Source of the DNA: Candidatus Latescibacterota bacterium
GTDB taxonomy: Bacteria; Latescibacterota; UBA2968
Direction: 5' to 3'
Length of the DNA: 64,000 nucleotides
Assembly (NCBI GenBank): GCA_965207885.1
Contig: OZ242311.1
Location: 6,080,001 to 6,144,000, forward strand
Numbering within the stretch: position 1 is the stretch's first letter; each line of letters starts with the position of its first letter. Of this stretch, positions 19,472 through 47,887 are shown in pieces. Under the pieces are notes generated by a model, which saw nothing but the letters and a program-made list of their open reading frames with translations, was not told where the DNA came from and made no database searches. The translations under genes were made by a program, and so were the position numbers.

Positions 19472-20668
19472 TTAGCTCTTAATAACACGTAGCGTATCGC
19501 GTGCGATCATCAGTTCTTCGTTGGTTGGAATGACGAGTACGGATACCGGGGCGGTCTCATGATGAATAGTTTCGTTCATGGGGTTGCCCTCGTTTTTTGC
19601 TTTGTCGAGATGTACGCCCAGGAATCCGAGTTTTTCACAGATGCACTCCCGTATGAGTGGCGCGTTTTCCCCTATTCCGGCGGTGAATACAAGCGCGTCT
19701 ATCCCGTCGAGTACCGCCGCGTATTTTCCGATGTACTGGCGGATGCGGTAGCAGAAGATGTCGATTGCAAGTGCCGCACGCCGATTTTCCTTATAGACGG
19801 CGATTAGGTCTCTGAGGTCTGATCCGATTCCGGATACGCCGATGAGACCGCTTTGATGGTTGAGCATCTGGTCGATTTGATCGGGCGTCATCTGGTGTTC
19901 TCTGATCAGGTAGAGGATGATCGCCGGGTCGATGTCCCCACTGCGCGTTCCCATTACGAGTCCCTGAAGGGGTGTGAATCCCATGCTGGTGTCGATTGAT
20001 TTTCCATTTTCGATGGCGGTGATGCTACAGCCGTTTCCCAGATGGCATGTGATCAGTTTTAGCGTTTTCAAGGGCGAGCCGAGCATTTCCGCTGCACGCA
20101 TGGCGACGTATTGATGCGATATGCCGTGGAAACCGTATTGTCGGATTTGATACTGTTCGGATATCGCGTGGGGCAGGGCATAAGTGTGGGCGTAGTCCGG
20201 GATGGTCTGGTGGAATGCGGTGTCGAATACCGCGACGTGTGGGATGTGGGGTAGTATGGTCTGGCAGGCGCGAATTCCGCGCAGGTTGAAGGGGTTGTGC
20301 AGTGGGGCGAGGGGGGCGCACTGTTCGATTGTTTTTTCGACTTCGGGCGTGATCCGGGTGGAGGCCGCGAAATGGCTCCCGCCGTGTACAACGCGATGGC
20401 CGACTGCGTGGATTTCATCGGGCGTGCGGAGGATTCCCCAGTCCGGGTGGAGCAGGATTTCAAAGATGCGTTGAAATACGGCTTCAGGAGCGGTTTGAGG
20501 TACTGGGATTTGATGGGTGACGCCATCCCGCCGCGTGTAAGACAATTCTGCGGATGCAGAGAGCAACCGTTCGACATGTCCTCTTGCGAGGCATTCTTCG
20601 CTGTGCATGTCGAAGCACTGGTATTTGATGGAAGAACTGCCGGCGTTGATGGTGAGTATTACTGGCAT
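19472..20668 (-). CDS. ackA: Acetate kinase
   Basis: INAGSSSIK, GHRVVHGG, APLHN, FDTAFH, YGFHG.SH, CHLGNG, GTRSGD.DP, FTAGIGEN, PTNEE. Confidence 0.96.
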   Translation of the reverse strand: MPVILTINAGSSSIKYQCFDMHSEECLARGHVERLLSASAELSYTRRDGVTHQIPVPQTAPEAVFQRIFEILLHPDWGILRTPDEIHAVGHRVVHGGSHFAASTRITPEVEKTIEQCAPLAPLHNPFNLRGIRACQTILPHIPHVAVFDTAFHQTIPDYAHTYALPHAISEQYQIRQYGFHGISHQYVAMRAAEMLGSPLKTLKLITCHLGNGCSITAIENGKSIDTSMGFTPLQGLVMGTRSGDIDPAIILYLIREHQMTPDQIDQMLNHQSGLIGVSGIGSDLRDLIAVYKENRRAALAIDIFCYRIRQYIGKYAAVLDGIDALVFTAGIGENAPLIRECICEKLGFLGVHLDKAKNEGNPMNETIHHETAPVSVLVIPTNEELMIARDTLRVIKS

Positions 20669-20678
20669 GGTCAGTCCG

Positions 20679-21533
20679 CTATCTGTGGCTCCATGTAAGG
20701 GATTCATCGCTGTTCGCCTTCAGCCAGGTGCGCAGAGGTACGTCCTCTTCTGAAGGCACATAGTAGCCCGCCTGTTTGGTTGCCGCTCCGAGGAGTTGTC
20801 GGCGAATCGGGCTTAGGTGCTCGAAGAGATGGTCAACTTCCATGATGCACTTGGGCCGGATCCAGCGATATGCATAGCCGTAGAAGAGGACTTTTCTCGG
20901 TCTGTTTAAGTAGTTGGGACTCGAGGCGTGCCACAGTCGCCGGTCGAACAGGACGGCCGACCCGGCGTTGACCCGTATGGGCATGCCGTTGATGGGCATT
21001 TCGTCATCGGAATAGGTGAGTTGCTTATTTGCCTGCTGCCCTGGCGCAATATAGAAGTTCGCCACGCCGACATCAGTGGTGTCGGTGAGGAAGAAGGCAA
21101 CCTTCAGCGATAACATAGGATTCACCGGAAGTCCTTCCATGTCAAGGTCGCCATTGGATCGATTCTGGTCCTGATGCCAGCCTAATTTTTTGCCAGCAGG
21201 CGGGGGCTTGCTCGTTGGCGGCGAAATAACCATCTGCGTGTGGAATAGGTATATATTCCATCCCATGAGGCCCCAGACCTTTGGGAAGGTGGTGGGATAG
21301 TCTATAAGATCCAGAAGCGATGCGTCCTTGCCAATGCAGTCGTGTGCGTTTACTCGCTGCGCCGGACTCATGCCCTCCTCTTGCCGAATTCGTGCGTCAA
21401 TGCGATCGACTGCGGCTATAGCTGTCTCGAGCATCTCTTCGTCGAGTGCGTTTTCTATGACGAAATAGCCGTCGCGCTGAAACTGCTGGCGTTCCTCCTC
21501 TGTGAGTCTGTGGTCCAGGCAAGATCTATCCAT
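20679..21533 (-). CDS. PhyH family dioxygenase
   Basis: LTEEERQQF..DGY, WHQD, LKVAFFLTD, FDRRLWH..R. Confidence 0.88.
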   Translation of the reverse strand: MDRSCLDHRLTEEERQQFQRDGYFVIENALDEEMLETAIAAVDRIDARIRQEEGMSPAQRVNAHDCIGKDASLLDLIDYPTTFPKVWGLMGWNIYLFHTQMVISPPTSKPPPAGKKLGWHQDQNRSNGDLDMEGLPVNPMLSLKVAFFLTDTTDVGVANFYIAPGQQANKQLTYSDDEMPINGMPIRVNAGSAVLFDRRLWHASSPNYLNRPRKVLFYGYAYRWIRPKCIMEVDHLFEHLSPIRRQLLGAATKQAGYYVPSEEDVPLRTWLKANSDESLTWSHR

Positions 21534-21576
21534 TTGTCAATCCTCTGTAATGTCTTAGATGTCTTCTACCAGTTCC

Positions 21577-22335
21577 TCATCTCTCTATACTTCCTCCGAT
21601 TTTTTTTAACTGCTTAAGCCACTCGGTATATTCTTGTTTTGCTTCTTCGTTCATCGGGTGGTATTTCGCCACATTTCCGGTTTCCCGGATCTTCATCTTC
21701 TCAAATATCTCCCGGTCTTCTTTGGGCTGACACCATTCGATGACTTTCTCCGCTATCTTCGGCGGCACCACCACGGCTCCATCATCGTCTGCTACAATAA
21801 TGTCGCCGGGGAATATCAACACGCCGCCACAGCCTATGGGCAGGTTGTAATCCCAGGGGTACATCTCGAAAAACCCGGCATTGGCCGGTGTCCCTCCCCG
21901 GGCGAACAGAGGTAATCCCAGATCGAGCGCGCTGGGCAAATCCCGCAGGCATCCATCTACTACGATCCCTTTTCCCCCGCGTGCCTGCACTCCCGTCATC
22001 AACATTTCTCCCAAACAGCCCGTTTGCATGTGTCCCCGGGCGTCAATTGCCAGCACGTCGCCCTGTTCGATCGACATAATTGACGCCCATAGTGCCGATG
22101 TTTTTTCTGTTTGTTCCTCGCCCAGGCCCTCGATAATATCCTCCCGTTTGGGCAAGAACTGCAGGGTCACTGCCGTGCCCACGGCTTTCATCCCGGGTGT
22201 CAGGGCTTTTGGTCCCAGCATAGCATGCCTCAATATTCCCTGGCTGCGCAAAAACGTCGAGATGCTGGCTACGCTGATGTCCCAAAAAGGATATACCAGT
22301 TCGCGGGAGGGGCGAGTTATTTCTCTGTTATTCAT
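21577..22335 (-). CDS. RraA family protein (HMG/CHA aldolase-like)
   Basis: G.AVT, GCLGE, GIVVDG.LRD, GGV...PGDIIVADDDG.VVVP. Confidence 0.88.
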   Translation of the reverse strand: MNNREITRPSRELVYPFWDISVASISTFLRSQGILRHAMLGPKALTPGMKAVGTAVTLQFLPKREDIIEGLGEEQTEKTSALWASIMSIEQGDVLAIDARGHMQTGCLGEMLMTGVQARGGKGIVVDGCLRDLPSALDLGLPLFARGGTPANAGFFEMYPWDYNLPIGCGGVLIFPGDIIVADDDGAVVVPPKIAEKVIEWCQPKEDREIFEKMKIRETGNVAKYHPMNEEAKQEYTEWLKQLKKIGGSIER

Positions 22336-22347
22336 GGGAGTTCCCTT

Positions 22348-23709
22348 CTAAGGTAGCACGCGTACGCGTTGCAGTCGCTGTTCCTCTTTGATATGTGTGT
22401 ACTGCGTCTGTTGAATCCGGTGCGTCAGCAGTCGCTGCACAAGATCCAATGTTACATGTTCGTAACCAGCTACGCCTGCCAGATTTTGCTGTTCCAATGG
22501 ATCCACTGCCAGGTTATACAGGTGCTGTACGCCACCCTGTTCCGGATCGAATACCAGTTTCCAGTTTCCGGTGCGCACCATCGCACATGTAGCCAGTTCG
22601 GCAAATACCGCGTTTCTCCCAATGTGCGGTTTCCCCCGGACCAGGGCCGGGATATCCAACCCGGGCCGGCGGCGGTCGAACGCGAGCTTAGCCCCCGCAA
22701 GCCGAAGTATCGTCGGATACAGGTCGAGGTGAGACACCAGCGCCTTGCTCACCCGCGGCCCATTCATCCTTTCTTCTTTTGGGATTCCCGGACCGCACAT
22801 CAAAAACGGCACGCCAGCACTGTTCTCGTAGAAATACCTCTTGTCCAATATCCCGTAATCGCCCAGACAATCTCCGTGGTCCGAAGTAAAGATGATTACC
22901 GTATTATCGTATATCCCCTTCGCTTTCAGCGTCTCTACCAGTTGGCCCACATAAGCATCGATTAGCGCGCATTTGTCCATATAGTGTGCCCGTCTCAGTC
23001 GCACCGACGCTTCGTCCGGTGCTCCCAGGGGTGGCGACATCGCCTCGGGGTCGTGTTGCAATTCGCCCGGATGCCACATCGGCGGATGCGGCCCGATAAA
23101 TGACAGATTCAGATAAAAAGGCCGGTCCTCTATATAGTCCTCCACGAATCGGATCCCGTTTACCCCGATAAATCCGTCGGCCGTCTCGTCTGGGTCGTCG
23201 AACACGTGCCGAAATCCCCCTTTGCGAAGCGCCTCTCGGAACGTCTCCAGCTTTCCTTGTTTTTTCAGGTAATTCGTGTACTCATCGTCATTGTGTCCGT
23301 TTTCTCCGTCGTCCTGAACCTGAAATATATAGTCGAATCCATAACGTCTCAGTTCTTCGTCGTTCTCCGTTACATCAATGCAGTACCCGTAGCTGTCAAT
23401 ATAATGGTGCTTGCCAATCATTGCCGTATAATATCCCGCCTGCTGGAGGTGGTGCATAAACGTATCGTCCCGAAGCTTCGGGTGAATCACATCGGCCTGG
23501 TTCCCGCATACTCCCGTTTGCGATGGGTACATCCCGGTGATGATCGATATCCGCGATGGCCCGCACAGTGGCGTGGCGCAATACCCGTTGGTAAACTGCG
23601 TTCCCTCTGCGGCTAAAGCCATCAAATTGGGCGTGCTCTTTCCCAGCGCATCGCGCCGGAAATGATCGGTAAGAATGAGAATAATATTAGGGTGTTTGGC
23701 AGTGGACAT
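22348..23709 (-). CDS. Cys-type (formylglycine) sulfatase, no signal peptide
   Basis: PNI..ILTD, CGPSR, GKHH, TSDHG, VPF, DLYPT, LYNL..DP.E..NL. Confidence 0.92.
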   Translation of the reverse strand: MSTAKHPNIILILTDHFRRDALGKSTPNLMALAAEGTQFTNGYCATPLCGPSRISIITGMYPSQTGVCGNQADVIHPKLRDDTFMHHLQQAGYYTAMIGKHHYIDSYGYCIDVTENDEELRRYGFDYIFQVQDDGENGHNDDEYTNYLKKQGKLETFREALRKGGFRHVFDDPDETADGFIGVNGIRFVEDYIEDRPFYLNLSFIGPHPPMWHPGELQHDPEAMSPPLGAPDEASVRLRRAHYMDKCALIDAYVGQLVETLKAKGIYDNTVIIFTSDHGDCLGDYGILDKRYFYENSAGVPFLMCGPGIPKEERMNGPRVSKALVSHLDLYPTILRLAGAKLAFDRRRPGLDIPALVRGKPHIGRNAVFAELATCAMVRTGNWKLVFDPEQGGVQHLYNLAVDPLEQQNLAGVAGYEHVTLDLVQRLLTHRIQQTQYTHIKEEQRLQRVRVLP

Positions 23710-23758
23710 ACAACGCACTCCTCTTGTGTTTGTTTCCAGGGAAATGGGTTGTTCAATC

Positions 23759-26035
23759 TCAATCAGGCTTCAACTCCAGATCCAGAAACGCCTGTTTCTC
23801 TTCTCCCGAGTGCAGGTCTTTCACCCGCATATTCAGCCGGAAATCTCCCTTCCCGGCATTGCTCAGGTCCAGCGCCAGATACTCCGCAGAATCGGGGGTA
23901 TCTCCCAGATATTCTACTTCTACGGAGGTTGTGGGTTTGTCCTTGCTGCCGAAGATCCTGAGCAAATTCTCGAGTACCGTATTCGTTTCTTTTTCGATTT
24001 TTGCCACCGTATATTCGATCGCAAAAGACGTCGTCCCGAACTCATCGGGTGTCAGATTATAGACCTCGAAATACACATACATCGGCCGTGCCGGATCGAA
24101 CCGCCGCGTCGGATTGGGTACCAGGCGGTGGTCGCGGAAGGCAAATCGGCCGGAATCCGCAGCCGCAATTTCATAGGCCGGTACAATGCTGCTCACATCC
24201 AGCCGTACCTGCGAAAATGCCGGTACCTCCAGCGTTCCTTTCCACCCTCCGAAGCGTCCTTCCCGGGTCTGTTGAATAAAAAAGGCATTGTTATAGGTAT
24301 CTGGCTCCACCCGAAATCGAATCGTGCCGAGTCCCATCCCCTCAAACCAGCGCATATCCTGTCGGATCACGCCTTCCCGCTGCTGGACGACCCGGTTCCA
24401 GTTTCGATCGTGCAGCGTCATGCCATATTCGTAAACCGCAGACGTATCGGCCAGGTTCTCCAGATTTTTATCCGACAGCGGAACCCCGTAAAAACACACG
24501 GCATCCGTCTTCTCTTTCCCTTTGAAAAATCCGATATACATATGAAAAGGGAGCGGGTCAATATCCAGCCACGTATGGCGGTCCGTACGCAGCGCCACAT
24601 CCACTGCCTGCCGACTCTGCAGGGTAATCTCATTTTGAATCTGCATCTGGTAGAGCGGATCCTTGAACCGTTCCGGATACAGATAGGGCGGCCCCCACAT
24701 GTCCCGGTCCTCCAGCGTGGGCGGATAGGGTGCCAACCGCCAATTGTTCCGCGTCCCGTGCCGGTCGATATTAAAATGGAAAATCATCTGGGGCAGAGCG
24801 GGCGTCGGGTCGTAGAACCAGGACTCGTTTTGAATCAGATCCTGGTCGATGGTCCGGGCACGGTCGGCCGGATCCCCGTGGCGAATATAGATCAGCCCTT
24901 TGTCGTTCAGCCGGTCGTTGAGCGCAAAAGCCGGCGGGAAATTGAATACGCTCAGTTTGTCGGGATTGTTGAACCACGCGCGCAGTCCGTCATACCGGTA
25001 GTACGTCTCGGCCACCATTAAACGCCTGTAATGTTCTGCCAATCGGGCGTTATGCGACAGGGCCGGTGTGGGATCTCTGCGAAGCCAGAAGCGTCGAAAA
25101 AAGTCAGCATAATCCTCAGGTGTGACCAGGGACAGGAACCGTTGTAGTTCCCTATCTGTCACAATATACTTCACATCCTCGAAAATCAGTTCGGCATCCA
25201 GGCGGTTGCGGATATGATCGACCGCTTTAAAGAAAAACCCCTCGGCCATTTGCGGCGAACTCAGGGTGTAGTACACCCGGGCAAGAGACAATCTTGCCGG
25301 CGCCGGGCTGATGGCCGAATCCGATGCTAACCAGGCCTTCAGCGCCCCGCCAGCCGCTTCCAGATCCCCAGATAGTCGTTCAGCTTCTCCCACAAAATAG
25401 TCCGCGTGCTCGGTCTCTTGAGTCTCCAGCCAGCCTTTCGCTTCCACTGGATCCCCGTGGTCCAGCAGGTAGCGGTAGAGCCGGAATAGTCCCCGCTGGA
25501 TGGCCGTCAGATGCGGCTTTGTCGCTGCCTGTCTGTGTCCGAGATAAATCGCCTCTCGGTACTTTTCTCGGTACCGTTCTAATGTTGCATACTGATAGAA
25601 TCCGTCCAAGTAGAGCGAATCTGCCACAATGAGCCGCTTAAAGTATCTCTCTGCTTTGTCCCATTCCCGCTTCCGAAACAGCGTCGCCTTGAATTTTCCC
25701 GTTTCGCGGTGGCTAATAGCCAGGTTGTAAAGTGCCTCCGGGTCCTCTGGAATCGTTTTTAGAACCTTTTCGTACCACTTCTTCGCCTTGCCCCAGTCCT
25801 CCTGGAGAACTCCCACCTTCCCCAGACCCTTTATCGCCGGGACCAGCTTTCGATCCCGTTTCAGGGCACGCTCAAACGCATCCTCGGCCTCGCGGAACTG
25901 TTTCTGCACAATCAGTGCATGGCCTTCATCCACCAGCCGCATGGCCTGAAGGGTCCCCGTCTCGTCAGCCTGCGCTATGCCGGACGCCAGGACCAAAACA
26001 ACAAACACGCGAAACCAGAAGTGCCAGATATCCAT
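23759..26035 (-). CDS. Exported TPR + GWxTD-like domain + beta-sandwich protein
   Basis: Signal peptide (..IAQA), TPRs, FW..RDPTP...N.RL.EHY.R, DKG.IYIRHG.P, ESW.Y, C-terminal VPNP...YFEVYNL. Confidence 0.8.
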   Translation of the reverse strand: MDIWHFWFRVFVVLVLASGIAQADETGTLQAMRLVDEGHALIVQKQFREAEDAFERALKRDRKLVPAIKGLGKVGVLQEDWGKAKKWYEKVLKTIPEDPEALYNLAISHRETGKFKATLFRKREWDKAERYFKRLIVADSLYLDGFYQYATLERYREKYREAIYLGHRQAATKPHLTAIQRGLFRLYRYLLDHGDPVEAKGWLETQETEHADYFVGEAERLSGDLEAAGGALKAWLASDSAISPAPARLSLARVYYTLSSPQMAEGFFFKAVDHIRNRLDAELIFEDVKYIVTDRELQRFLSLVTPEDYADFFRRFWLRRDPTPALSHNARLAEHYRRLMVAETYYRYDGLRAWFNNPDKLSVFNFPPAFALNDRLNDKGLIYIRHGDPADRARTIDQDLIQNESWFYDPTPALPQMIFHFNIDRHGTRNNWRLAPYPPTLEDRDMWGPPYLYPERFKDPLYQMQIQNEITLQSRQAVDVALRTDRHTWLDIDPLPFHMYIGFFKGKEKTDAVCFYGVPLSDKNLENLADTSAVYEYGMTLHDRNWNRVVQQREGVIRQDMRWFEGMGLGTIRFRVEPDTYNNAFFIQQTREGRFGGWKGTLEVPAFSQVRLDVSSIVPAYEIAAADSGRFAFRDHRLVPNPTRRFDPARPMYVYFEVYNLTPDEFGTTSFAIEYTVAKIEKETNTVLENLLRIFGSKDKPTTSVEVEYLGDTPDSAEYLALDLSNAGKGDFRLNMRVKDLHSGEEKQAFLDLELKPD

Positions 26036-26052
26036 AAATATCTCCAAAGGAG

Positions 26053-26829
26053 TCAACGCGTTTCTGCAACTACCGGATTGCGCAAGATTCCGATCCCCGA
26101 AATCTCAATCTCGATCGTATCGCCGGGGGCAAACGGCCCCACTCCAGACGGTGTTCCGGTCATGATCACGTCGCCCGGCAGCAGGGTCATCGCCTCGCTG
26201 ATGTAGGAAATCAGCTGGGCAACCGAAAACAGCAGGTCGGATGTATTGGCCTGCTGCCTGACCTCACCGTTCAGCCGAGTGGTCACGTCCAGATGGGTCG
26301 GATCCAGCCCGGTTGCAATCACCGGACCGAGGGGACAGAAGGTATCGAATCCCTTCCCGATGAGCATACAGCCCAACGCCATTTCAGCCGCCTGAATCAC
26401 GCGTTCGCTCACATCGTTGCCGCAGGTATAGCCCAGTACGCAGTCCAGGGCTTCAGCATCCGACACTCTTCGGGCCGTCTTCCCAATGACAACGGCCAGT
26501 TCGCATTCGTAATGGATCTCCTTGCCTTGATGGGGATAGATGATCGGCTCTTCGGGGCCGATGACTCCGGTAGAAGGCTTCATAAACAGCATCGGAAACG
26601 GGGGCGGATCCTGGCCGCTTTCGCGGGCGTGTTCTGAGTAGTTCAAACCCACTCCGATGACCCTGGGGGCTTCGACCGGTGCGAGTACACGCACCTGGTC
26701 CAGATGTGTAACTACATCGCTGGTATCCAGGCTTTCGAAGGGAGAATCGATTAGCCGACGAACTGTACCATCCTCCTCCAGAATGCCGTAATGGATTTCC
26801 CCATCGGCGCTATACCGCAGAATCTTCAT
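26053..26829 (-). CDS. Fumarylacetoacetate hydrolase family protein
   Basis: VGLNY..H, FMKP, HYECEL, GYT..NDVS.R, KGFDTF.PLGP, GDVI.TGTP.GV. Confidence 0.92.
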   Translation of the reverse strand: MKILRYSADGEIHYGILEEDGTVRRLIDSPFESLDTSDVVTHLDQVRVLAPVEAPRVIGVGLNYSEHARESGQDPPPFPMLFMKPSTGVIGPEEPIIYPHQGKEIHYECELAVVIGKTARRVSDAEALDCVLGYTCGNDVSERVIQAAEMALGCMLIGKGFDTFCPLGPVIATGLDPTHLDVTTRLNGEVRQQANTSDLLFSVAQLISYISEAMTLLPGDVIMTGTPSGVGPFAPGDTIEIEISGIGILRNPVVAETR

Positions 26830-26841
26830 TTTTTTTTCCTT

Positions 26842-27783
26842 TCAGACATTGTCCTGTTCAGACCGGTCAGCGCTTTCCACAAAAGACCGGTAGCATGTGT
26901 TCACATCTGCCTCCTCTGCATCACCGTCGTGAACAACAACCCGCACGGCCAGATCCAGGACCTCATTCCGGTTGATTGCCATTTGTTTTTTCGCAAACGG
27001 ATTCAACGACAGGATGCCCCAATCGGAAACGTACCAGGTCTTGCAAGCAGTAGCCGGATAGGAAAACAGAGCCACACCTGCCCGCCTTTTAGCTGCAATC
27101 GTTCCCGAACAATCTACCCAATCGGCGCGTTCTCCCGAAATCACCTCGCTGCTGGAACGGCCAGCAGAATCGGTCAATCTCCCCCCACTGGTTGCCCGCA
27201 ATGCCTCTGCCATGCGGACTCCGAAATAGGCGTGTCGCGTAGGACCAATATGGATATCCCAATCAGTCGGTCGTAACTGCGAGTGGATGTCGATCTGATT
27301 ATTTACTTCGCCGGGATAGATATTGATCGTCCTTTTTTCGACGAGCAGGGTGCGCCCCTCGGGAGCGGCCCACTCGGAGGGTCCCTGCCAGTTGAGCGTC
27401 TGAATCAACCGGAGATGCGCTTGCGAGACCTCTGTACTTTCGACCGACACGCTCAGAATGCGTCCGGGGGCGCGTCCCTGGAAGGTTTCGTTGACGTAAA
27501 AGTTATAGGTAGCTTCCTCATAGGTGCTCGTGGAGAAAGGCAGGCGGCAATGCACATGGTCGGCGCCGATCCAGAGCGAATTGTGGTGCGGGTGATCTAC
27601 CGGACTCTCGGTGGTCACGGCAAAGCCGGAAGGCGTGTACACCGGGAAGAGATAAGCGCGGAATGCCCCCTGGCTCAGGGACGCAATATCCCGTCCGCGC
27701 CAGCGCACGTTCAGCCGATGGGACCTGGCCCAGGCTCCTCTGGACAGAGAGACGACGTCGTCTTCAACGGAGAAGAACGGCAT
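26842..27783 (-). CDS. DUF6807 (PmoA-like) family protein
   Basis: YL.PV.TP.G, DHPHH..LW, FGVRMA, WVD.SG, W...D.G..NPF. ATG at 27783 with AAGGGG RBS. Confidence 0.75.
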   Translation of the reverse strand: MPFFSVEDDVVSLSRGAWARSHRLNVRWRGRDIASLSQGAFRAYLFPVYTPSGFAVTTESPVDHPHHNSLWIGADHVHCRLPFSTSTYEEATYNFYVNETFQGRAPGRILSVSVESTEVSQAHLRLIQTLNWQGPSEWAAPEGRTLLVEKRTINIYPGEVNNQIDIHSQLRPTDWDIHIGPTRHAYFGVRMAEALRATSGGRLTDSAGRSSSEVISGERADWVDCSGTIAAKRRAGVALFSYPATACKTWYVSDWGILSLNPFAKKQMAINRNEVLDLAVRVVVHDGDAEEADVNTCYRSFVESADRSEQDNV

Positions 27784-27866
27784 GTTCACCCCTTTCATTA
27801 GTCCTTTTTTTTGATTTAAAAATAATTCTGTACGGGTCATTTGCACAGATCTTTTCAGGTCTCCAC

Positions 27867-29018: not shown

Positions 29019-29040
29019 TGCGCATACCCTCCGTTGGAAA

Positions 29041-30498: not shown

Positions 30499-30553
30499 AG
30501 GAGTTCCTCATTTAGCTCTGGTTGTTGGGTTATATTCCTTTTGTCCATCTCGC

Positions 30554-32554: not shown

Positions 32555-32602
32555 GGCACAATCTCCGGTGATACTTTCCAACACGCTTGCCGTCGAATAA
32601 TG

Positions 32603-34542: not shown

Positions 34543-34554
34543 AGTTTCCTCATA

Positions 34555-35325: not shown

Positions 35326-35340
35326 GTTTCAGCCTCCTTG

Positions 35341-37188: not shown

Positions 37189-37193
37189 ATTTT

Positions 37194-38558: not shown

Positions 38559-38596
38559 GGTTTACCTCCAGCGCTGGATGCAGATACGGGTCGAAA

Positions 38597-40582: not shown

Positions 40583-40587
40583 GTCGT

Positions 40588-40646
40588 AAAAAAAAGAAGC
40601 GTATCCCCTGCGATAGCGCATACCAGGTATGGCTCAGGATACGCTC
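40588..40646 (-). terminator. Terminator-like hairpin plus U-tract in the leader of the 21-kb gene run (candidate attenuator)
   Basis: Minus strand AGCGUAU-CCUG-AGC-CAUAC-cug-GUAUG-c-GCU-aucg-CAGG-gg-AUACGCU then UCUUUUUUUU, ending 5 nt before the AUG. Confidence 0.55.
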
Positions 40647-40688
40647 TGGCTGTGATTTATGCAAAGGAAATCCAGAGAAATCAGCGCC

Positions 40689-40890
40689 AATATCCATAAA
40701 TTTTACTGCGATTGCAACTGTTTATTTTCTTATATGAGATATTAATAAAATTCTTGCATCGTGTAATAATGTGAAATATATTATTGGCAGATTATCATTA
40801 TTTAGTCAGTTATATATGTCTTTTTTAAGTATTAAAGAAATATAATTTATATGGCATATATTACTTATTTTTTATTTTTTCAGGAGGAAA
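40689..40890. promoter_or_regulatory. Very AT-rich divergent promoter region
   Basis: Plus strand: TTGCAT-17-TATATT (40754-40782). Minus strand: TTGCAA-17-GATATT (40717-40689). AGGAGG RBS before 40895. Confidence 0.6.
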
Positions 40891-40894
40891 TCTT

Positions 40895-43800
40895 ATGAAA
40901 AAAATTGCAATAGTGTTTCTCGTTATTCTGTGTTCGGCATCGGTGGTATATGCCGGCACAACCGGTAAACTTACCGGGACCGTCAAAGATGCAGCCGGGC
41001 AGGTTTTGCCCGGTGCAAATGTCGTCGTCCAGGTAGAGGGTATTCTGGTGGGTGCTTCTACCGATGCGGACGGACAGTTCTTCATTCTGGCCGTTCCGCC
41101 AGGCCTGCATACCGTCAAGGCATCGATGGTCGGATACCAGGATGTCACGCAGACCGAGGTTCGCGTGAAAATCGATCAGACCTCAACGCTGAATTTTAGC
41201 CTCCGCGAAGAGGTCCTCGCTGCCGAAGAAATGGTTGTTGTGGCCGAACGACCACCCGTCGAAGTCGATTTGACCGGCAGCAAAGCCGTCATGTCATCAG
41301 TCGAACTCGACCGGAGCTTTGTCGCCAATATCAAGCAAGCTGTAGATACGCAGCAGGGCGTCAACTACAATGGCGGCATCCGCGGTGGGTTCGGTCTGGA
41401 TGTTTCCTATTATGTCGATGGTATGGAGTTGCGCGATGGTGCGTCCAACTCCAACTGGACGGGTATCAACACTTCCACAGTGCAGGAACTGGAGGTCCTG
41501 TCGGGAGGGTACAATGCCGAATACGGCCGCGCCAATGGCGCTGTGATCAATATGGTGACCAAATCGTCGAGGACCAGGGTCCACAGTACGCTCGATTACA
41601 AAATGCGCCCCGCTGGCATCTATCACTGGGGCGGGCATATTTACGGCCCTGAGCGCTACGAAAACCGCGTGATGAGCAATCCGGATTGGTGGAATAATCA
41701 CCCACCACCCGGCTGGTTCGGGACGGGCCACGTCACTGCGGCAGACGAGTACAAGAAAGGGCTTCGCGATAATCGCGATGGCGTGAATACGGCCCTGGCG
41801 CAGCACTGGATCATGAACTACCTGACTGCGCCCTGGATACAGGATTTAAAAGAGTACGACAAACGCACGCAGCACGGATATGAAGGCACGCTCTACGGTC
41901 CCCTGACCAAAAGGGCTTCTTTTATGGCTTCGGGCAGGTACTACAAGGGCGTTCCCAAATATCCTTCCGCATTGAATTACAACCCGGAATGGAACTTACA
42001 GAGTTCCCTGACTTTTGATGTCACTCAGAATTCAAGGGTTAAACTTCAGGGGATGCACGGCGGGTTTAACAACACGGACCAGTTCCGCACGCTGTACGGT
42101 TCCAGCGAGGACAATGGCTTGTGGCAGAACCGCAGCGGTGCGCATATTGCGTATCCCTCCAATAGCTGGAAATTTTTCCCCTTTGTGGCTCAGGGCACCC
42201 CGAGCCCGACCCCCCGAGCTCCCGAATACGTGCGGATGTGGAGCGGGCAGGCAAAGCTGACCCATATCTTTGACCCCAGAACATTTCTGGATGTCAATTT
42301 GAGCTACTTCTGGTATTTCCGCGAAGCCAATTACAGGCGGGACAATTTGTGGAAGACCAGCCACGCCGCCTATTCGAAGGGTTTTGACTGGAACGAAGTG
42401 CTGGTTGAGGAGGAAAACAAGCGCCTGACCAGGGGCCTGCCATTTCACGGCGTTGGCAGAATCTCCGGGATTCCCGGTTGGGGCCTCAACTACCCCGGCG
42501 ACCACGCCCAGGATTACGCCAAGGCCTATAACTATACCATCAAGGCCGATTTTACCAAGCAGGTCGATGATGTGCATCAACTGAAGGCCGGGCTATACGG
42601 ATCTTACCAGTTTTTCGACCGGTACTTCCACTTCGGGTATATCAGCACAGCCTGGGTCACAGATCCGATTGCCCGGGATACCAATCCCTATGAAGGTGCG
42701 ATCTATATTCAGGATAAGATCGAGACCATGGGCATGATCGTAAATGCCGGGCTGCGGGTGGATATGTACAATGTCAATGCTTATGTCAGCGATGACGTCT
42801 TCGACCCGCTTCGGATCGATCAGGATACGCCGGGCAATGTCAAACAGAGCGAGATATCCATCGGCGATCCCTATGGGTATAAGAATATTTCCAGTACTGA
42901 CGAGTTTGCAGAACACACGCCCACGCAGTGGGCAATCTCGCCCAGAATCGGTATTTCCCACCCCATTACAGATAGGACCGTGCTGCACTTTATGTACGGG
43001 CATTTCAATCAGCGGCCTTCGTGGCAAAAGATGACCAACACGCCTTTTATGCAATTGAGGCCCTATCCCGAGACTGATCCCATCCTCACACCGCTGCCAG
43101 CGGACTACGGACAGAAGCACGGCTATTCTTATACGCACTGGGCAGGTGCCGGAAATCCCGGTCTGGAGTTCGAAAAAATGATCCAGTATGAGGTCGGCTT
43201 CGATCAGAATATCGCCGATTTGCTCAATCTGGACGTGACCCTGTATTACAAGGATGGCAAGAATCTGACGGCCGCCGGATTCAGGAATGATGAGAGTTTT
43301 CTCGCCTATTACGGGACATATACCGGTACGGGCCACCGCTTGTTCCCCGATTTTAACGGCCTGGGATCCAGGGGACCGGGCAAGAGCGGGAGTCTGGTGG
43401 TTAACGGCAATATGTTTTTCCAGGATGTGCGGGGGTTGGAAATAACGATGGATAGCCGCTTCCAACAGTATGCCCACTTCAAGTTCCACTACAATTTGTC
43501 TTATTCGAATACCGGCATCTATGGACTGCGGAATGTCTATCGCGTTCAGCCGGATGGGCAGAAGGCGCGTCCGGACAGCCGTCACGGTGCGAACAACAGG
43601 GACAAGGGGGTATCTGGCAGAGACAACGCGTACTGGAATCCTCGGAACAGTGCCAAATTGACGGCTACGGTGTTTACACCGGCGAATTTTGGGCCTGTGG
43701 TGGGCGGTTGGAGACCCCTGGGCGATTGGAACGTGAACCTGCATTCCACCTGGAATCAGGGCTTCAAATATACCTACCACTCGCCGGGCGATCCATCTAC

Positions 43801-44104
43801 TGAGCCATTGAACATGCGGTGGAAACCCATGTGGAATACCAACATGATGGTCTCAAAGGGATTTGACAATATCATTCCGGGTGCGCGAACGGAAATCAAT
43901 GTCACGGTGGTCAATCTCTTCAATCAGAAACAACTGCGCCTCCCCTCGGGCAACAATCTGCAGCAATACCACGAGAACGGCAGGCTGCCATTTGTCGTGT
44001 ATGGCACTGGCGAATTCCGAGAGGAAGAGGACGATGTCTGGCGTTGGTACAACCAGCGGCAGATGCCGCGCGAGGTGATATTTGGCGTTCAGGTGAGGTG
44101 GTAG
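40895..44104 (+). CDS. TonB-dependent outer-membrane receptor with N-terminal CarboxypepD_reg-like domain
   Basis: Signal peptide, GTTGKL.G.V.D...LPGANV, plug ELEVLSGGYNAEYG, Y.QDK.E, N.GLR.D, SPR.G.S.PIT, C-terminal IFGVQVRW. Confidence 0.93.
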   Translation: MKKIAIVFLVILCSASVVYAGTTGKLTGTVKDAAGQVLPGANVVVQVEGILVGASTDADGQFFILAVPPGLHTVKASMVGYQDVTQTEVRVKIDQTSTLNFSLREEVLAAEEMVVVAERPPVEVDLTGSKAVMSSVELDRSFVANIKQAVDTQQGVNYNGGIRGGFGLDVSYYVDGMELRDGASNSNWTGINTSTVQELEVLSGGYNAEYGRANGAVINMVTKSSRTRVHSTLDYKMRPAGIYHWGGHIYGPERYENRVMSNPDWWNNHPPPGWFGTGHVTAADEYKKGLRDNRDGVNTALAQHWIMNYLTAPWIQDLKEYDKRTQHGYEGTLYGPLTKRASFMASGRYYKGVPKYPSALNYNPEWNLQSSLTFDVTQNSRVKLQGMHGGFNNTDQFRTLYGSSEDNGLWQNRSGAHIAYPSNSWKFFPFVAQGTPSPTPRAPEYVRMWSGQAKLTHIFDPRTFLDVNLSYFWYFREANYRRDNLWKTSHAAYSKGFDWNEVLVEEENKRLTRGLPFHGVGRISGIPGWGLNYPGDHAQDYAKAYNYTIKADFTKQVDDVHQLKAGLYGSYQFFDRYFHFGYISTAWVTDPIARDTNPYEGAIYIQDKIETMGMIVNAGLRVDMYNVNAYVSDDVFDPLRIDQDTPGNVKQSEISIGDPYGYKNISSTDEFAEHTPTQWAISPRIGISHPITDRTVLHFMYGHFNQRPSWQKMTNTPFMQLRPYPETDPILTPLPADYGQKHGYSYTHWAGAGNPGLEFEKMIQYEVGFDQNIADLLNLDVTLYYKDGKNLTAAGFRNDESFLAYYGTYTGTGHRLFPDFNGLGSRGPGKSGSLVVNGNMFFQDVRGLEITMDSRFQQYAHFKFHYNLSYSNTGIYGLRNVYRVQPDGQKARPDSRHGANNRDKGVSGRDNAYWNPRNSAKLTATVFTPANFGPVVGGWRPLGDWNVNLHSTWNQGFKYTYHSPGDPSTEPLNMRWKPMWNTNMMVSKGFDNIIPGARTEINVTVVNLFNQKQLRLPSGNNLQQYHENGRLPFVVYGTGEFREEEDDVWRWYNQRQMPREVIFGVQVRW

Positions 44105-44136
44105 AGCCTTTTATAGATGAAAGGAGAGGATGATTT

Positions 44137-46254
44137 ATGCGCTCATATTTCAGGCGGTTTAGATGGGCACTGTTGACCTCACTGCTCGGGTTGGCGGTTG
44201 CCGCGTCCGCAGTGCGGGCACAGAATGTGAACAATGAGGCCCTGACACGGGCGAAAATGTGGATGGAATCCTATGAAGCGGGTATCCCAGTTTCGGGCAG
44301 TATTGCAGGATGCGGACAGATCTCGTATCCCGGTTATCAGGGGAGTCTCAAAAATTCTTTGAATGGTGCGGGTTCCTGGACCACAGGCTCAGTGCGGGCG
44401 GTGCGGAACGACACTGCCTTCGTGCATGGGTTTGATGGCAACCAGTACCAGCCTCCCTGGGTCAGCATCGGCGAACCCACGAGGGTTATTAAGAATTACA
44501 ATTTTGTCGAAAGGGGTATCCATTTTCCGGAAGAGGTTATGGAGGGGGGGCTGATTTCGAACCATACCGGATGGCCCCCTGGAACCGAAGCAGATAACCT
44601 GAAGTATATTCTCAGGTCCAGAAGTATGGTCTGGAGCATTCCCAAATACGACGATTTCGTCATTACGGAATACACGATTATCAATGACGATTTCGCTCCT
44701 TTTCGCAATATGTTCTTCATTCACAGCTTTACGGTGCAGGTCACGCGGCAGGGCCGCGTTGGGGAGTTGAAAACCCAGTATGATACCGAGTATATCTGGG
44801 ATGAAAAACGAGGGGTTTTTGTTTTCTACGATGACAACTCCATTCCGATCAATACCGAGCAGGCAGTCACTTACGACATCGCACCGGGTAATGTCACGGG
44901 AGATGTCGGAGATCCGGGCAATATCAAGAGCCAGGGATCAATCGACTATCAGCTCTATTCTCCCCAGGTCGTCGGACACGGATTTGTGGATGTGCCGCCA
45001 AATGCGTTCGGCGAGTCCAGGGTACACCACTCAATCACCAATTACGACTGGAGCCTTTCCCCCACTGGTGTACATCCGGCGGCTCCGGAGTCGGAAAACG
45101 CAAAATGGGTGTGGGGAGGAGGTCGTCCTAATGTGTTAAACCTCGATAGATTTTCGGATATGCCCAGTCCGTTCGCCTTTTCCCAGTCGAAAATGAGCTA
45201 TCGAGCAGCCGCACAGGATCCAACGACCTCAGATGGTGGCATATACGAACGGTGGCCGGTCTATGCTATGGGCATCGGACCGTACAATCTGGCCCCTGGA
45301 GACTCGATCACATTTACCCGTATCATGTGTGCCGGGGAAATGGACCGCAACCTCGCCATGCTGGGCGGCGAAGCGGCCACGAGACTGATCGACATGGACT
45401 TTGCAAGTGAGGTGGAAGGGGCGAGTAATGAACACGCTTCTATCAAGGAATTTCGCAAGAACTGGGACGCGGCAATAGAATTGATCGAAACCAGGAACGC
45501 GACGGGTTTTTACACGCCAACTGCTGTTCCTCCACCTACCGTGGGCAATCCGCCCAAGATGCTTTTGGGTGATGAACTGGAAGCGGAGATTTTTAAATCC
45601 GAGGAAGGCGGGTCGTTCAAGTCCGGCGTCGAACTCCGGTGGATACCCGTTCCGAGCAATTATGTGGATCCGCTCACGGGCGAAGCCGATTTTGCAGGCT
45701 ACAAGGTGTATTCGTCCCCCGTCGGCATCGAAGGTCCCTGGGAGTTGCGGGCCACCATCAACAAAGGCCAGGAGAACATTCAGGACGGGCGGGTGGTTTT
45801 CCAGCTTGAAACCGATCCCGGCATTCCACTGCGCTATGGCGTGACCAGTTTTGATACGCAGGGATTGGAAAGCGGCATGACGGCTTATACCTACGATTCG
45901 ATCACGTCGAAGCGAGCACCCTCAAATGATTTTGCAGATGTGCGCGTGGTGCCCAATCCCTTCCGCCAGGTCAGTGGACACCCCGATCCCGGGCAGGCAA
46001 AGCGGTTGACATTTGTGAATGTGCCGTCGCAATGTACTATTCGCATCTACAATCTGGCGGGAGATTTGATTCGCACCATCCAGCACGACGATGGATTCGG
46101 CGAAGAAGCCTGGGGATCTACCACGGATAACGATTATATGCTCACGCGGTTTTTCCACAATGTGATGCCAGGGCTTTATATTTATCAGATAACTTCTGAA
46201 GTGCCCGGACATGAAGGCGAATCTGCTATGGGCAAATTCGTCGTCATCAAATAA
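44137..46254 (+). CDS. Exported protein with FN3-like module and T9SS-type C-terminal sorting domain
   Basis: Signal peptide (..VRA-Q), DFAGYKVY, C-terminal VRVVPNPF...F.N.P..CTIRIYNLAGDLI.TI...W...GLYIY...GKFVVIK. Confidence 0.8.
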   Translation: MRSYFRRFRWALLTSLLGLAVAASAVRAQNVNNEALTRAKMWMESYEAGIPVSGSIAGCGQISYPGYQGSLKNSLNGAGSWTTGSVRAVRNDTAFVHGFDGNQYQPPWVSIGEPTRVIKNYNFVERGIHFPEEVMEGGLISNHTGWPPGTEADNLKYILRSRSMVWSIPKYDDFVITEYTIINDDFAPFRNMFFIHSFTVQVTRQGRVGELKTQYDTEYIWDEKRGVFVFYDDNSIPINTEQAVTYDIAPGNVTGDVGDPGNIKSQGSIDYQLYSPQVVGHGFVDVPPNAFGESRVHHSITNYDWSLSPTGVHPAAPESENAKWVWGGGRPNVLNLDRFSDMPSPFAFSQSKMSYRAAAQDPTTSDGGIYERWPVYAMGIGPYNLAPGDSITFTRIMCAGEMDRNLAMLGGEAATRLIDMDFASEVEGASNEHASIKEFRKNWDAAIELIETRNATGFYTPTAVPPPTVGNPPKMLLGDELEAEIFKSEEGGSFKSGVELRWIPVPSNYVDPLTGEADFAGYKVYSSPVGIEGPWELRATINKGQENIQDGRVVFQLETDPGIPLRYGVTSFDTQGLESGMTAYTYDSITSKRAPSNDFADVRVVPNPFRQVSGHPDPGQAKRLTFVNVPSQCTIRIYNLAGDLIRTIQHDDGFGEEAWGSTTDNDYMLTRFFHNVMPGLYIYQITSEVPGHEGESAMGKFVVIK

Positions 46255-46284
46255 CCCTGTTACGGATAATTGGAGGACAGACTA

Positions 46285-47352
46285 ATGAATCGCCATTTCT
46301 ACATCTTATGCGCAATATTGGCCGTGTTCTTCCTGCCGCACAGGGCCAGCGGGCAGACGACCTACGGCGAACAGGAATTTGGTCTGGGCATTTCGCCAGC
46401 GCCTTTTGAACGCGTTGGCATGTCCGGCTGGCAATTTCTGAAAATTCCGACCAGCGCCCGCATCGCTGCAATGGGTGGTGTTGCTACCGCCATTAGCCAC
46501 GGCGATGCCAGTTTTGCATTCAACAATCCGGCTTCTACAACAGATGTTGAAGACTTAGATGTTTTTGTGGGTAGAATCAACTGGATTGCCGATATCGGAT
46601 ACAATGTGGGCAGTGTTGTCAAAAACCTGGACCAATGGGGCTATGTGGGGATCAACGCGACCGCTCTGGATTACGGCACCATGTACCGCACAGAAAATAT
46701 TGAAGTTCTGGATGCTGCGGGCAGGCGCACTGGCAACGTATCCATCAATCTGGACGAAGGCACATTTAGCGGCGGCAATCTCTCCATTGGCCTGACTTAT
46801 GGCAGGAAAGTGACAGATCGGTTGCAAATTGGTGGTAATCTGCGCTATATGGAAGAACAGTTAGACGATGTGCAGGGGGCCAAAACAGCCAACTGGGCGC
46901 TGGATATCGGCACTGTGTATTACACGGGGATCAAAAGTTTGCGGATTGCAATGGTCGGTCGGAATTTCGGTCCGGATACGCAGTTCTCCGAATACGACGA
47001 ACGCATCCAGACGCCTCCGGTCAATGTCCGCATGCCTATGTCATTTTCACTGGGTGCAGCTATTGATTTGTTCGAGGATGAAGAAGATCCGCATTTCATG
47101 ACCCTCGTGGGCGAGTTTGTACACCCGAACGATGGTCGGGAAAAATTGAATTTTGGTGCGGAGTACACTTATAATAATATGGGGATTTTACGGGCTGGAT
47201 ACAGGTACAACTACGATGAGGAGGGGTTGACGATTGGGGCAGGTGTTCGGCACAGTACCGGACAACTGGGTCTGAGGGTGGACTACGCGCTCGTGGATTT
47301 CGGGCGGTTGAACTATGTGCATCTCGTAACGCTCGGTATTAGCTATAAGTAG
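46285..47352 (+). CDS. PorV/PorQ-like (UPF0164, FadL-fold) outer-membrane beta-barrel
   Basis: G..FLKI..SAR.AAMGG...A, F.NPA, DIG..Y.TG, NFG, GAEY, LRAGY, DYA...FG.L..H. Confidence 0.88.
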   Translation: MNRHFYILCAILAVFFLPHRASGQTTYGEQEFGLGISPAPFERVGMSGWQFLKIPTSARIAAMGGVATAISHGDASFAFNNPASTTDVEDLDVFVGRINWIADIGYNVGSVVKNLDQWGYVGINATALDYGTMYRTENIEVLDAAGRRTGNVSINLDEGTFSGGNLSIGLTYGRKVTDRLQIGGNLRYMEEQLDDVQGAKTANWALDIGTVYYTGIKSLRIAMVGRNFGPDTQFSEYDERIQTPPVNVRMPMSFSLGAAIDLFEDEEDPHFMTLVGEFVHPNDGREKLNFGAEYTYNNMGILRAGYRYNYDEEGLTIGAGVRHSTGQLGLRVDYALVDFGRLNYVHLVTLGISYK

Positions 47353-47376
47353 AATCGTTCGAGATTTTCAAATATG

Positions 47377-47418
47377 CAAACGCCAGTGCAGGTCTTTGTT
47401 GCACTGGCGTTTGTTTTT
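47377..47418 (+). terminator. Intrinsic terminator of the TBDR-CTD-PorV operon
   Basis: CAAACGCCAGTGCA-9 nt-TGCACTGGCGTTTG followed by TTTTT. Confidence 0.9.
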
Positions 47419-47845: not shown

Positions 47846-47887
47846 ATCAGTAGTTCGCGGTTTGTTATTTCAAAAGGAGAAATACCT

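Follow-up and report, generated by a model that had tools for sequence, protein, structure and literature searches.

The closest described counterparts of the locus reported here are the SusC/SusD polysaccharide utilization loci (PULs) of Bacteroidota, in which a TonB-dependent transporter (TBDT) of about 1000 aa with an N-terminal CarboxypepD_reg domain is followed by a gene for an exported, presumably surface-located partner, with an inner-membrane transporter and degradative enzymes encoded adjacently under a shared control region. The same traits recur at positions 19472..47352 of a 64,000-nucleotide stretch of DNA (hereafter the window) from a Candidatus Latescibacterota bacterium (assembly GCA_965207885.1, contig OZ242311.1, positions 6,080,001 to 6,144,000, forward strand). 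There, a three-gene operon encoding a TBDT, an exported 705-aa protein and a PorV-like outer-membrane barrel (the trio) lies divergently from a 16-gene run that opens with a DUF6785/DUF6784 membrane protein and continues mostly with catabolic enzymes. Unlike in SusC/SusD PULs, the TBDT is not of the SusC/RagA type (65 versus 368 bits) and there is no SusD. The partner is all-beta, with a Sec signal and no lipobox, and is proposed to be tethered by a C-terminal domain (CTD) seated in a barrel instead of by a lipid anchor. In addition, sulfatases are periplasmic in SusC/SusD PULs but appear to be cytoplasmic here. The locus works like a TBDT-centred utilization locus, yet it cannot be classed as a SusC/SusD PUL: a search for the two features that define one found neither a SusC/RagA match nor SusD.

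SusD-less TBDT loci are already known outside Bacteroidota, for example the "CUT" loci of Proteobacteria (Xanthomonas). Like the Latescibacterota locus, these combine a TBDT with an inner-membrane secondary transporter and catabolic enzymes and lack SusD; unlike it, they use MFS-type transporters and are not known to have a pair of CTD protein and PorV-like barrel. That pair has its nearest parallel in type IX secretion (T9SS), where PorQ holds PorZ, which retains its CTD, PorV holds PorU, and CTD proteins of type B need cognate PorP/SprF barrels whose genes cluster with their own (PMC10202324). In our locus, too, a PorV/PorQ-family barrel gene adjoins a gene for a protein whose C-terminal beta-sandwich is predicted to sit in the barrel, and the genes for cargo and cognate barrel cluster much as that review describes (PMC10202324). 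It differs from the T9SS pairs in belonging to Latescibacterota and not Bacteroidota, in having a TBDT always before the pair and DUF6785 usually after it, and in scores that place the CTD below the family cutoffs and the barrel below the PorV and PorQ equivalog cutoffs. At the inner membrane, the nearest described system is the OPT/YSL family (PF03169), represented by barley Yellow Stripe 1 (HvYS1; 7wst/7wsr), a proton-coupled, elevator-type symporter (PMC9691689). DUF6785/6784 resembles it in overall fold and in length (about 650-700 aa), and by analogy may share its proton-coupled elevator-type symport (PMC9691689). It differs in having no detectable sequence similarity to OPT/YSL proteins, in carrying two separate Pfam DUFs, in gene contexts that suggest sulfated or oxidisable organics and not peptides or metal chelates, and in that some paralogues are operon-coupled to a TBDT.

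We consider it reasonably probable that the region is a Latescibacterota nutrient uptake-and-catabolism locus that combines a recurring four-part envelope module with cytoplasmic enzymes. The 705-aa protein would be exported and held at the surface by a retained CTD-like domain plugged into its dedicated PorV/PorQ-like barrel, where it would capture ligand for the adjoining TBDT, taking the job done in Bacteroidota by SusD and surface glycan-binding lipoproteins. The TBDT would bring an oligomer-sized compound into the periplasm, and DUF6785/6784 would move it, still sulfated, to the cytoplasm on the proton gradient. Cytoplasmic sulfatases, PhyH dioxygenases, a Gfo and TIM-barrel isomerase pair, and a dehydratase/FAH/RraA set could then convert it to pyruvate-level products and, through ackA, acetate. 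A bolder version can be put forward only tentatively: the trio may be an undescribed outer-membrane uptake complex in which a barrel-docked CTD replaces the lipid anchor, and DUF6785/6784 a large unrecognised branch of OPT that imports sulfated or modified organics, the two jointly forming a two-membrane route specific to Latescibacterota and relatives. What is new here is the OPT/YSL fold that modelling assigns to a large DUF family as the putative inner-membrane step, and a conserved trio of TBDT, CTD-like protein and PorV-like barrel that appears to replace the lipoprotein partner. Literature searches on Latescibacterota with sulfatases and TonB-dependent transport, and on PorV with TBDTs, PULs and Gemmatimonadota, returned no description of this arrangement, and none is given in the titles or abstracts returned for PorV-like proteins with TonB-dependent transport. 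A preliminary description of this DNA, made from its letters, had already proposed a two-membrane architecture. The transporter fold of DUF6785, the linkage of the two arms and the predicted docking of CTD and PorV-like barrel speak for that proposal; a constant part for GWxTD proteins and sialylated substrates are not supported.

The Outer-Membrane Trio

The trio is encoded on the plus strand. It consists of the TBDT (40895..44104, 1069 aa), which has CarboxypepD_reg (PF13620, 72.7 bits) and Plug (PF07715, 30.8 bits) domains; the exported all-beta protein (44137..46254, 705 aa), which belongs to no Pfam or NCBIfam family and is described from its AlphaFold2 (AF2) model and Foldseek matches; and the PorV/PorQ-family outer-membrane beta-barrel (46270..47352, 360 aa; NF033709, 169.5 bits against a cutoff of 90). 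An intrinsic terminator with a 16-pair stem, 8 GC pairs and a T-rich tail follows at 47376..47414 (plus strand). Domains were called with Pfam (E <= 0.01) and NCBIfam on the 19 locus proteins, and 24 further window proteins were scanned as well (43 in total).

The 705-aa protein begins with a Sec-type signal peptide that lacks a lipobox cysteine. Its AF2 model, built on a 31-sequence alignment (pLDDT 76.6, pTM 0.78), shows a beta-supersandwich (approximately residues 30-460) followed by an Fn3-like domain (480-575) and, at 605-705, a beta-sandwich that resembles a CTD. Foldseek gave matches to GH94, GH149 and GH116 enzymes and dextran dextrinase, in each case to the N-terminal sandwich domain (E 1.7e-7 to ~1e-4), as well as to Fn3 domains and PorU (6za2_A, E 1.1e-4); no catalytic domain was apparent. 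At the sequence level, the C-terminus matches Pfam Por_Secre_tail (PF18962) at 13.3 bits (cutoff 27, E 0.11) and has a further sub-threshold match to the PorU C-terminus. Because its matches are sub-threshold, we refer to this domain as CTD-like without placing it in the type A sorting-domain family.

The barrel is a true relative of PorV, since the profile of its family matches Flavobacterium johnsoniae PorV (6h3i_F) with an E value of 3.7e-11, although it misses the equivalog cutoffs for both PorV (NF033710, 45 versus 250 bits) and PorQ (NF033711, 106.1 versus 220 bits). When residues 29-360 of the barrel were modelled together with the last 110 residues of the 705-aa protein in three runs alongside three controls, ipSAE was 0.88 in 3/3 runs and 0.00 for the best control; the runs shared at least 82% of contacts, with a partner pLDDT of 70-73. 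The same ipSAE mark was passed by 116/157 solved complexes and 2/215 mismatched pairs, a rough guide only, because our own alignments were used. The CTD protein and the PorV-like barrel had earlier been suggested to act at the surface, and docking of one in the other is now predicted.

Several results weigh against this view of the trio. The TBDT is SusC-sized, but the SusC/RagA model TIGR04056 reaches only 65.2 bits against a cutoff of 368.25, over residues 25-216 (a paralogue in locus L046 scores 67.3 bits); its barrel matched no Pfam barrel model at E <= 0.01, and the only matches to PDB sequences were at the level of the plug, to YncD and PqqU. The glycoside hydrolase sandwich matches of the 705-aa protein are domain-level (TM ~0.26) and speak to fold, not to a binding function. 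Its last 107 residues score 20.0 bits with TIGR04183, short of the cutoff of 23 (E 5e-4), so that the "CTD-bearing" of the preliminary description holds for a C-terminal beta-sandwich with weak CTD matches and not for a family member above threshold. Among 31 members of the 705-aa family, 3 match TIGR04183 and 5 match the PorU model (best E 1.4e-6) at a threshold of E <= 0.01. The predicted complex may reflect likeness to known structures instead of binding of this pair, because assemblies of PorV with cargo domains have already been solved. General scans of the 43 window proteins found no T9SS core component (SprA/Sov, PorK/L/M/N, GldK/L/M/N), a result that covers the window, and the literature searched contained nothing on Latescibacteria and type IX secretion.

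If the proposed arrangement is correct, the trio provides a case of a TBDT surface partner held otherwise than as a lipoprotein, and PorV-family barrels gain a job outside secretion, in a phylum other than Bacteroidota. Just past the terminator lies a plus-strand gene (47699-48784) for a 361-aa protein of no Pfam or NCBIfam family, with a homologue at the same place in L001.

The DUF6785/DUF6784 Membrane Proteins

The window encodes three DUF6785/DUF6784 proteins, all on the minus strand. Copy a (38597..40621, 674 aa) is the first gene of the long operon and matches DUF6785 (PF20581) at 255.8 bits and DUF6784 (PF20580) at 63.8 bits; copy b (30554..32584, 676 aa; PF20581 246.2 bits, PF20580 57.0 bits) would be a second OPT-like transporter in the same operon; and copy c, described below with the flanking genes, scores 265.9 and 75.4 bits. 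Both models are above their gathering scores in copies a and b, which are about 52% identical and fall in separate clades of the tree. The DUF6785/DUF6784 proteins are single polytopic membrane proteins, and the AF2 model of copy a is confident and all-helical (pLDDT 89.0, pTM 0.90, 37-sequence alignment). Foldseek against the PDB gave exactly two matches at E <= 0.001, both to HvYS1: 7wst_A (E 2.6e-8) and 7wsr_A (4.2e-8), with probability 1.00, TMq 0.57, TMt 0.62 and ~690 aligned columns. The remaining matches had TM values of ~0.1, none above ~0.13.

On this modelling evidence, DUF6785 and DUF6784 would be the two ends of one OPT-like transporter. Because HvYS1, a member of the OPT family, is the only significant PDB match, DUF6785/6784 can be taken as the putative "missing" inner-membrane importer, present under a DUF name. 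The statement that the locus has no importer had been made beforehand, and it is true of importers recognisable by name; what it missed is that DUF6785/6784 itself seems to have the fold of an OPT/YSL transporter. A predicted non-transporter fold for DUF6785, such as that of a polymerase or GT-C protein, had been named as grounds for refutation; the AF2 model matches HvYS1 instead. The model therefore offers no new principle at the inner membrane, because DUF6785/6784 itself appears to have an OPT/YSL secondary-transporter fold, a known superfamily fold. Direction of transport and substrate are our inference entirely. A protein-language-model search (Atlas) with DUF6785/6784 clusters excluded returned "peptide transporter family" clusters (0.80) and an OPT cluster (0.78, PF03169 on 31% of its members); these scores, being below 0.9, are treated as a lead only.

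Sequence comparisons weigh on the other side. Identity to HvYS1 in the structural alignment is 12-13%, the Pfam OPT model (PF03169) did not match the DUF6785 proteins even at E <= 10, and a search of PDB sequences with DUF6785 gave 0 matches at the same threshold. Pfam and NCBIfam together, also at E <= 10, returned only the two DUF models.

The family is a large one: at least 7785 clusters at 50% identity were matched in a profile search at E <= 1e-3, of which 5842 remained at E <= 1e-10 and 3051 at E <= 1e-30. The 113 homologues that we retrieved are unnamed or annotated as "hypothetical," and the literature searched contained no mention of DUF6785, DUF6784 or GWxTD. For thousands of membrane proteins now called "hypothetical," an OPT/YSL fold would suggest a function that can be tested. 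An earlier analysis of Latescibacteria genomes described, in its available part, conventional symporters and ABC systems only, with TonB-dependent import predicted solely for B12 and iron (PMC4454575); DUF6785 as an importer would fill this apparent gap in organic-matter uptake.

Some family members are unusually long. In P0204, P0234 and P0241 an insert of ~200 residues, possibly an extramembrane domain, separates the DUF6785 and DUF6784 parts, and one 2120-aa protein of the representative library (P0221) has MacB/FtsX fused to DUF6785/6784, either as a real fusion or as a run-through of the gene call. Neither the inserts nor the fusion is informative on substrate.

Recurrence of the Two Arms in Other Genomes

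Loci were collected by scanning one genome per species with 21 of the closer DUF6785 sequences as query, and the best 80 of 333 stretches were kept as 76 loci (L numbers). The 1290 open reading frames (ORFs) called in these loci and the window were labelled with the window proteins and clustered; Pfam was run on one representative of each of 94 clusters with at least 3 members, and 23 proteins, for the most part representatives to which Pfam gave no name, were also scanned with NCBIfam. Counts refer to 90 DUF6785 genes of at least 450 aa, with L070 left out because a longer ORF on the opposite strand displaced its DUF6785 gene in the ORF calls. All loci were selected through a DUF6785 gene, and counts of trio adjacency are therefore biased toward DUF6785.

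Four Latescibacterota/Latescibacteria chromosomes (L001-L004) are 96-97% identical to the window and have the same gene order, and nearly all other loci are also titled Latescibacterota. With the window included, the 705-aa protein and the PorV-like barrel are each represented by 22 homologues, always as neighbouring genes; a TBDT precedes the pair wherever the locus extends far enough. The complete trio stands beside DUF6785 in 20/76 loci, in addition to the window. By gene, 26/90 DUF6785 genes have the 705-aa and PorV-like pair within 6 genes and 20/90 have the trio within 2. In a FastTree phylogeny of the 90 proteins, whose SH-like supports are, like its flagged long-branch joins, of lower reliability, the trio-linked genes form four separate well-supported clades of 5, 6, 13 and 2 rows, with stem branches of 0.36-1.05 changes per site. 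On this tree 4 changes account for the trio label, compared with an average of 22.7 when labels are shuffled, which shows clustering only. Three of the groups have the order TBDT > 705-aa > PorV-like > (one gene) > DUF6785 on one strand, and the window group alone is divergent. Moreover, the 705-aa paralogues of the four groups diverge in step, with phmmer scores against the window copy of 1600, 400, 78 and 52 bits. That the two arms would co-localise in other genomes had been predicted beforehand, and four deep paralogue groups, three of them co-directional, agree with it.

How independent these observations are is another matter. The trio loci come from one phylum and 14 assemblies, and many are orthologues, so the arrangement has been observed as four independent retentions, not 20. 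A further limit comes from the DUF6785 genes themselves: 64/90 copies have no trio within 6 genes, and one 50-row clade is entirely trio-free. Because of that clade, DUF6785 is best described as a general inner-membrane transporter family, one part of which is tied to the outer-membrane trio. Its members occur in many types of catabolic operon: a divergent sulfatase with an aldo-keto reductase (AKR), Kelch with an ABC system and TonB, and DAO with an amidase are found in the trio-free clade, and PhyH with TauD is a further type.

The same figures bear on the alternative that survives best, in which the arms are neighbours without a shared substrate. The trio would then be self-contained, serving some other uptake or a T9SS-type surface or adhesion structure, and the long operon would be a porin-fed catabolic cluster with its own transporters. 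The divergence of the arms in the window, the strong terminator of the three-gene operon and the 64/90 trio-free copies are all compatible with this, as is the fact that PorV-family proteins are known from secretion, not uptake (PMC10202324). We nevertheless judge it unlikely, because in three further deep groups the trio lies upstream of DUF6785 and is co-directional with it, the components diverge in parallel, and 20/20 trio loci have the trio beside DUF6785, although this last count is biased because the loci were chosen by DUF6785.

Other features of these loci deserve mention. In one paralogue group, the gene between the PorV-like barrel and DUF6785 encodes a 489-aa protein that was considered as a hidden GWxTD protein and rejected (hhalign probability 0.6%, no signal peptide). 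Pairs of MacB_PCD/FtsX permeases (~811 aa) recur with methyltransferases downstream of one DUF6785 group (L043, L046-L048, L050, L051, L058, L069). Thirteen loci (L006, L007, L011, L018, L022, L024, L025, L027, L028, L036, L037, L061, L062) have an AKR and a Kelch propeller upstream of DUF6785, which is adjoined by an ABC ATPase, NMT1-type binding protein and permease, with TonB and GBBH-like_N nearby and a gamma-glutamyltranspeptidase a few genes on. Two short contigs assigned to other phyla, L067 (3.8 kb, Holophagales) and L071 (1.6 kb, Gammaproteobacteria), carry DUF6785 genes that hardly differ from those of Latescibacterota (98% identity between L067 and window copy b), for which mis-binning is likelier than transfer.

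The Long Operon and Its Candidate Substrate

The long run (19472-40621) consists of 16 minus-strand ORFs separated by fifteen gaps of -29 to +55 bp. From 40621 down, these encode DUF6785a, GWxTD, BNR_2+LamG, PhyH, Gfo, TIM, DUF6785b, sulfatase, enolase-superfamily, DUF6807, FAH, TPR+GWxTD, sulfatase, RraA-like, PhyH and ackA. No intergenic terminator-like site was found within the run; the scan gave 21 sites against a shuffle mean of 19.3, and those on the minus strand were all intragenic. The spacer between the arms (40622..40894, 273 bp), read directly from the sequence, is visibly AT-rich and has promoter-like hexamers on both strands at 40742-40809, which are consensus matches only. Its true length is probably 312 bp, with DUF6785a starting at M14, because M14 is invariant in the DUF6785 alignment. 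At the Gfo and TIM genes of the window, the ORF caller selected antisense ORFs (410 and 134 aa) instead, which leaves the Pfam-based map unaffected. The layout as first described, with 16 co-oriented and tightly spaced genes, an AT-rich divergent region and a terminated three-gene operon, was reproduced throughout, and each domain named at that stage was recovered by Pfam or NCBIfam. None of the 19 locus proteins matched a SusD, ABC, MFS, TRAP or SSS model in Pfam at E <= 0.01.

Two Cys-type sulfatases are encoded at 29041..30498 (PF00884 180.8 bits from residue 5; CMPAR motif at residue 53) and 22348..23718 (164.7 bits from residue 10; CGPSR motif at residue 52). Their catalytic domains begin at residues 5-10 with no leader, and the 615-aa BNR_2 propeller and LamG protein (35341..37188; PF13088 49.7 bits, PF13385 34.9 bits) is also leaderless. 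The lack of signal peptides on the sulfatases and the BNR protein places desulfation, as predicted from sequence, in the cytoplasm, and the substrate should therefore cross the inner membrane still sulfated. Cytoplasmic sulfatases would in this way imply intact import of sulfated compounds, which bears on the turnover of sulfated organic matter. The BNR_2 and LamG protein is probably a cytoplasmic glycosidase-like enzyme. Its single BNR_2 match, which is weak and comes from a leaderless protein, had been the sole basis for proposing sialylated substrates, and that proposal is not supported.

The remaining enzymes would fit oxidative sugar or sugar-acid chemistry. A Gfo/Idh/MocA oxidoreductase (33457..34542; PF01408 77.8 bits; best NCBIfam match iolG-like, 129 bits, below cutoff) is encoded next to a xylose-isomerase-like TIM barrel (AP_endonuc_2) of sugar isomerase/epimerase type (32603..33460; PF01261 106.2 bits), and such a Gfo/TIM-barrel pair is typical of oxidative sugar modification. 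The enolase-superfamily (MR/MLE) enzyme (27867..29018; PF13378 181.8 bits) is acid-sugar dehydratase-like, its best NCBIfam matches being talarate/galactarate, arabinonate and galactonate dehydratases, all below cutoffs. The FAH-family hydrolase (26053..26829; PF01557 235.6 bits) is of the 2,4-didehydro-3-deoxy-sugar-acid hydrolase type, best matching 2,4-didehydro-3-deoxy-L-rhamnonate hydrolase without reaching the cutoff (NF053535, 192 versus 500 bits). Together with the RraA-like/HMG-aldolase-family protein (21577..22335; PF03737 105.5 bits; NF006093 228 bits, cutoff 208), these resemble non-phosphorylative sugar-acid routes. Two PhyH-family dioxygenases (34555..35325, an Fe(II)/2-oxoglutarate dioxygenase, PF05721 36.6 bits; 20679..21533, 58.1 bits), a DUF6807 protein (26842..27846; PF14100 160.5 bits) and, as the last gene of the run, the acetate/propionate kinase ackA (19472..20707; PF00871 486.6 bits; TIGR00016 492.7 bits, cutoff 293) complete the set. 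Across the loci, a sulfatase or a PhyH/TauD dioxygenase is encoded no more than 3 genes away from 33/90 DUF6785 genes. Our guess is that the substrate is a sulfated sugar or deoxy-sugar(-acid). The earlier Latescibacteria analysis predicts the use of sulfated fucans and ulvans (PMC4454575).

GWxTD Proteins and the Direction of Transport

All three window GWxTD proteins have predicted signal peptides. The first (37194..38558, minus strand, 454 aa) is encoded 38 bp downstream of DUF6785a and matches TIGR04514 at 87.5 bits (cutoff 28) and PF20094 at 34.8 bits (cutoff 26.9). The second (23759..26056, minus strand, 765 aa) combines TPR matches with a GWxTD part (TIGR04514 53.3 bits, cutoff 28; Pfam GWxTD 23 bits, below cutoff; jackhmmer 117 bits), and the third belongs to the module with copy c. 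The literal GWxTD motif was absent from 3/3 in a regular-expression search. The protein at 37194..38558 had no relative among PDB sequences (a single chance match, E 2.2), and an Atlas search returned GWxTD clusters only, with no structure among them. Since phmmer labels for TPR-GWxTD proteins are partly driven by TPR repeats, GWxTD proteins were counted with jackhmmer, using their GWxTD part as seed; of the 16 detected, 3 lie in the window and 13 in 13/76 loci. A GWxTD protein lies within 6 genes of 25/90 DUF6785 genes and directly adjacent to 12/90, covering five DUF6785 groups (those of window copies a, b and c, a group with trio and TPR-GWxTD, and the glycerate-kinase-like/PhyH/TauD group). 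The association with DUF6785 is therefore real but partial. From their signal peptides, we infer that the GWxTD proteins are extracytoplasmic, exported accessory proteins of a subset of the modules; the general role in the system that had been assigned to them is not supported by these counts.

In L073-L076, an operon at ~4100-12030 (plus strand) encodes TPR-GWxTD, glycerate-kinase-like (DUF4147/MOFRL), PhyH, TauD and DUF6785 proteins, which suggests that this paralogue serves a sulfonate or sulfate-ester substrate. In L044 (8787-9920) and L055, a TnpB/IS605 OrfB-type gene (Cas12f1-like TNB domain) sits between TPR-GWxTD and the next DUF6785; it is absent from the orthologues L045 and L069.

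The TPR parts of the GWxTD proteins weakly match models of PrsT, BcsC and PilW (E 1e-9 to 1e-6, far below cutoffs), which are exopolysaccharide and pilus proteins. This raises the question of whether DUF6785/6784 could instead be an exporter or flippase for a lipid-linked or polymeric substrate, with the TPR/GWxTD proteins and the trio serving envelope or exopolymer assembly. The MacB/FtsX-type permeases that recur downstream of one DUF6785 group, and the 2120-aa fusion of MacB/FtsX with DUF6785/6784, could be read in the same way. We regard export as improbable, however, because the sole structural relative, HvYS1, is an importer, the DUF6785 genes are surrounded by genes for cytoplasmic hydrolases, dioxygenases and sugar-acid enzymes, and no glycosyltransferase or polymerase was found by Pfam and NCBIfam among the 19 locus proteins. 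Moreover, a plug-bearing TBDT normally imports, siderophores being the classical cargo. That cargo, HvYS1 (a transporter for Fe-phytosiderophore uptake) as the best and only structural match, and the TonB-dependent import of only B12 and iron complexes predicted in the available part of the Latescibacteria analysis (PMC4454575) might together suggest uptake of a metal chelate (metallophore), but this is very improbable given that no metallophore synthesis gene, reductase or metal regulator was seen among the 43 window proteins scanned, that sulfatases, dioxygenases and sugar-acid enzymes abound in the operons, and that genomes have many DUF6785 paralogues in differing catabolic contexts.

Flanking Regions

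A third module is encoded on the minus strand at 54902-64000. It comprises DUF6785/6784 copy c (62513-64000, truncated where the window ends), an enhancin-like M60 peptidase (59131-61557), a TPR+GWxTD protein (56555-59029, jackhmmer 145 bits) and two PhyH proteins (55714-56604 and 54902-55717). The peptidase hints at glycoprotein or glycopeptide substrates for this copy, which would suit an OPT-like (oligopeptide-type) transporter. With this module within the window and the loci in other genomes, the gene arrangement recurs beyond chance.

On the other side of the locus, 14781-19461 encodes a leaderless BNR_2 sialidase-like protein and, on the plus strand, PhyH, an HpcH/HpaI aldolase, a PIG-L deacetylase and a TIM barrel; this plus-strand enzyme set converges on ackA with a 10-bp gap. 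The catabolic island may thus be larger than 19472-47352. Further out, 2106-12272 (minus strand) has a low GC content (40-46% versus ~55% elsewhere) and encodes a DUF1828/DUF1829 protein, an SMC/AAA ATPase, a 1170-aa Eco57I/MmeI-type methylase and a 1064-aa PLD and SNF2 helicase protein; its make-up resembles that of an acquired island for restriction or defence.

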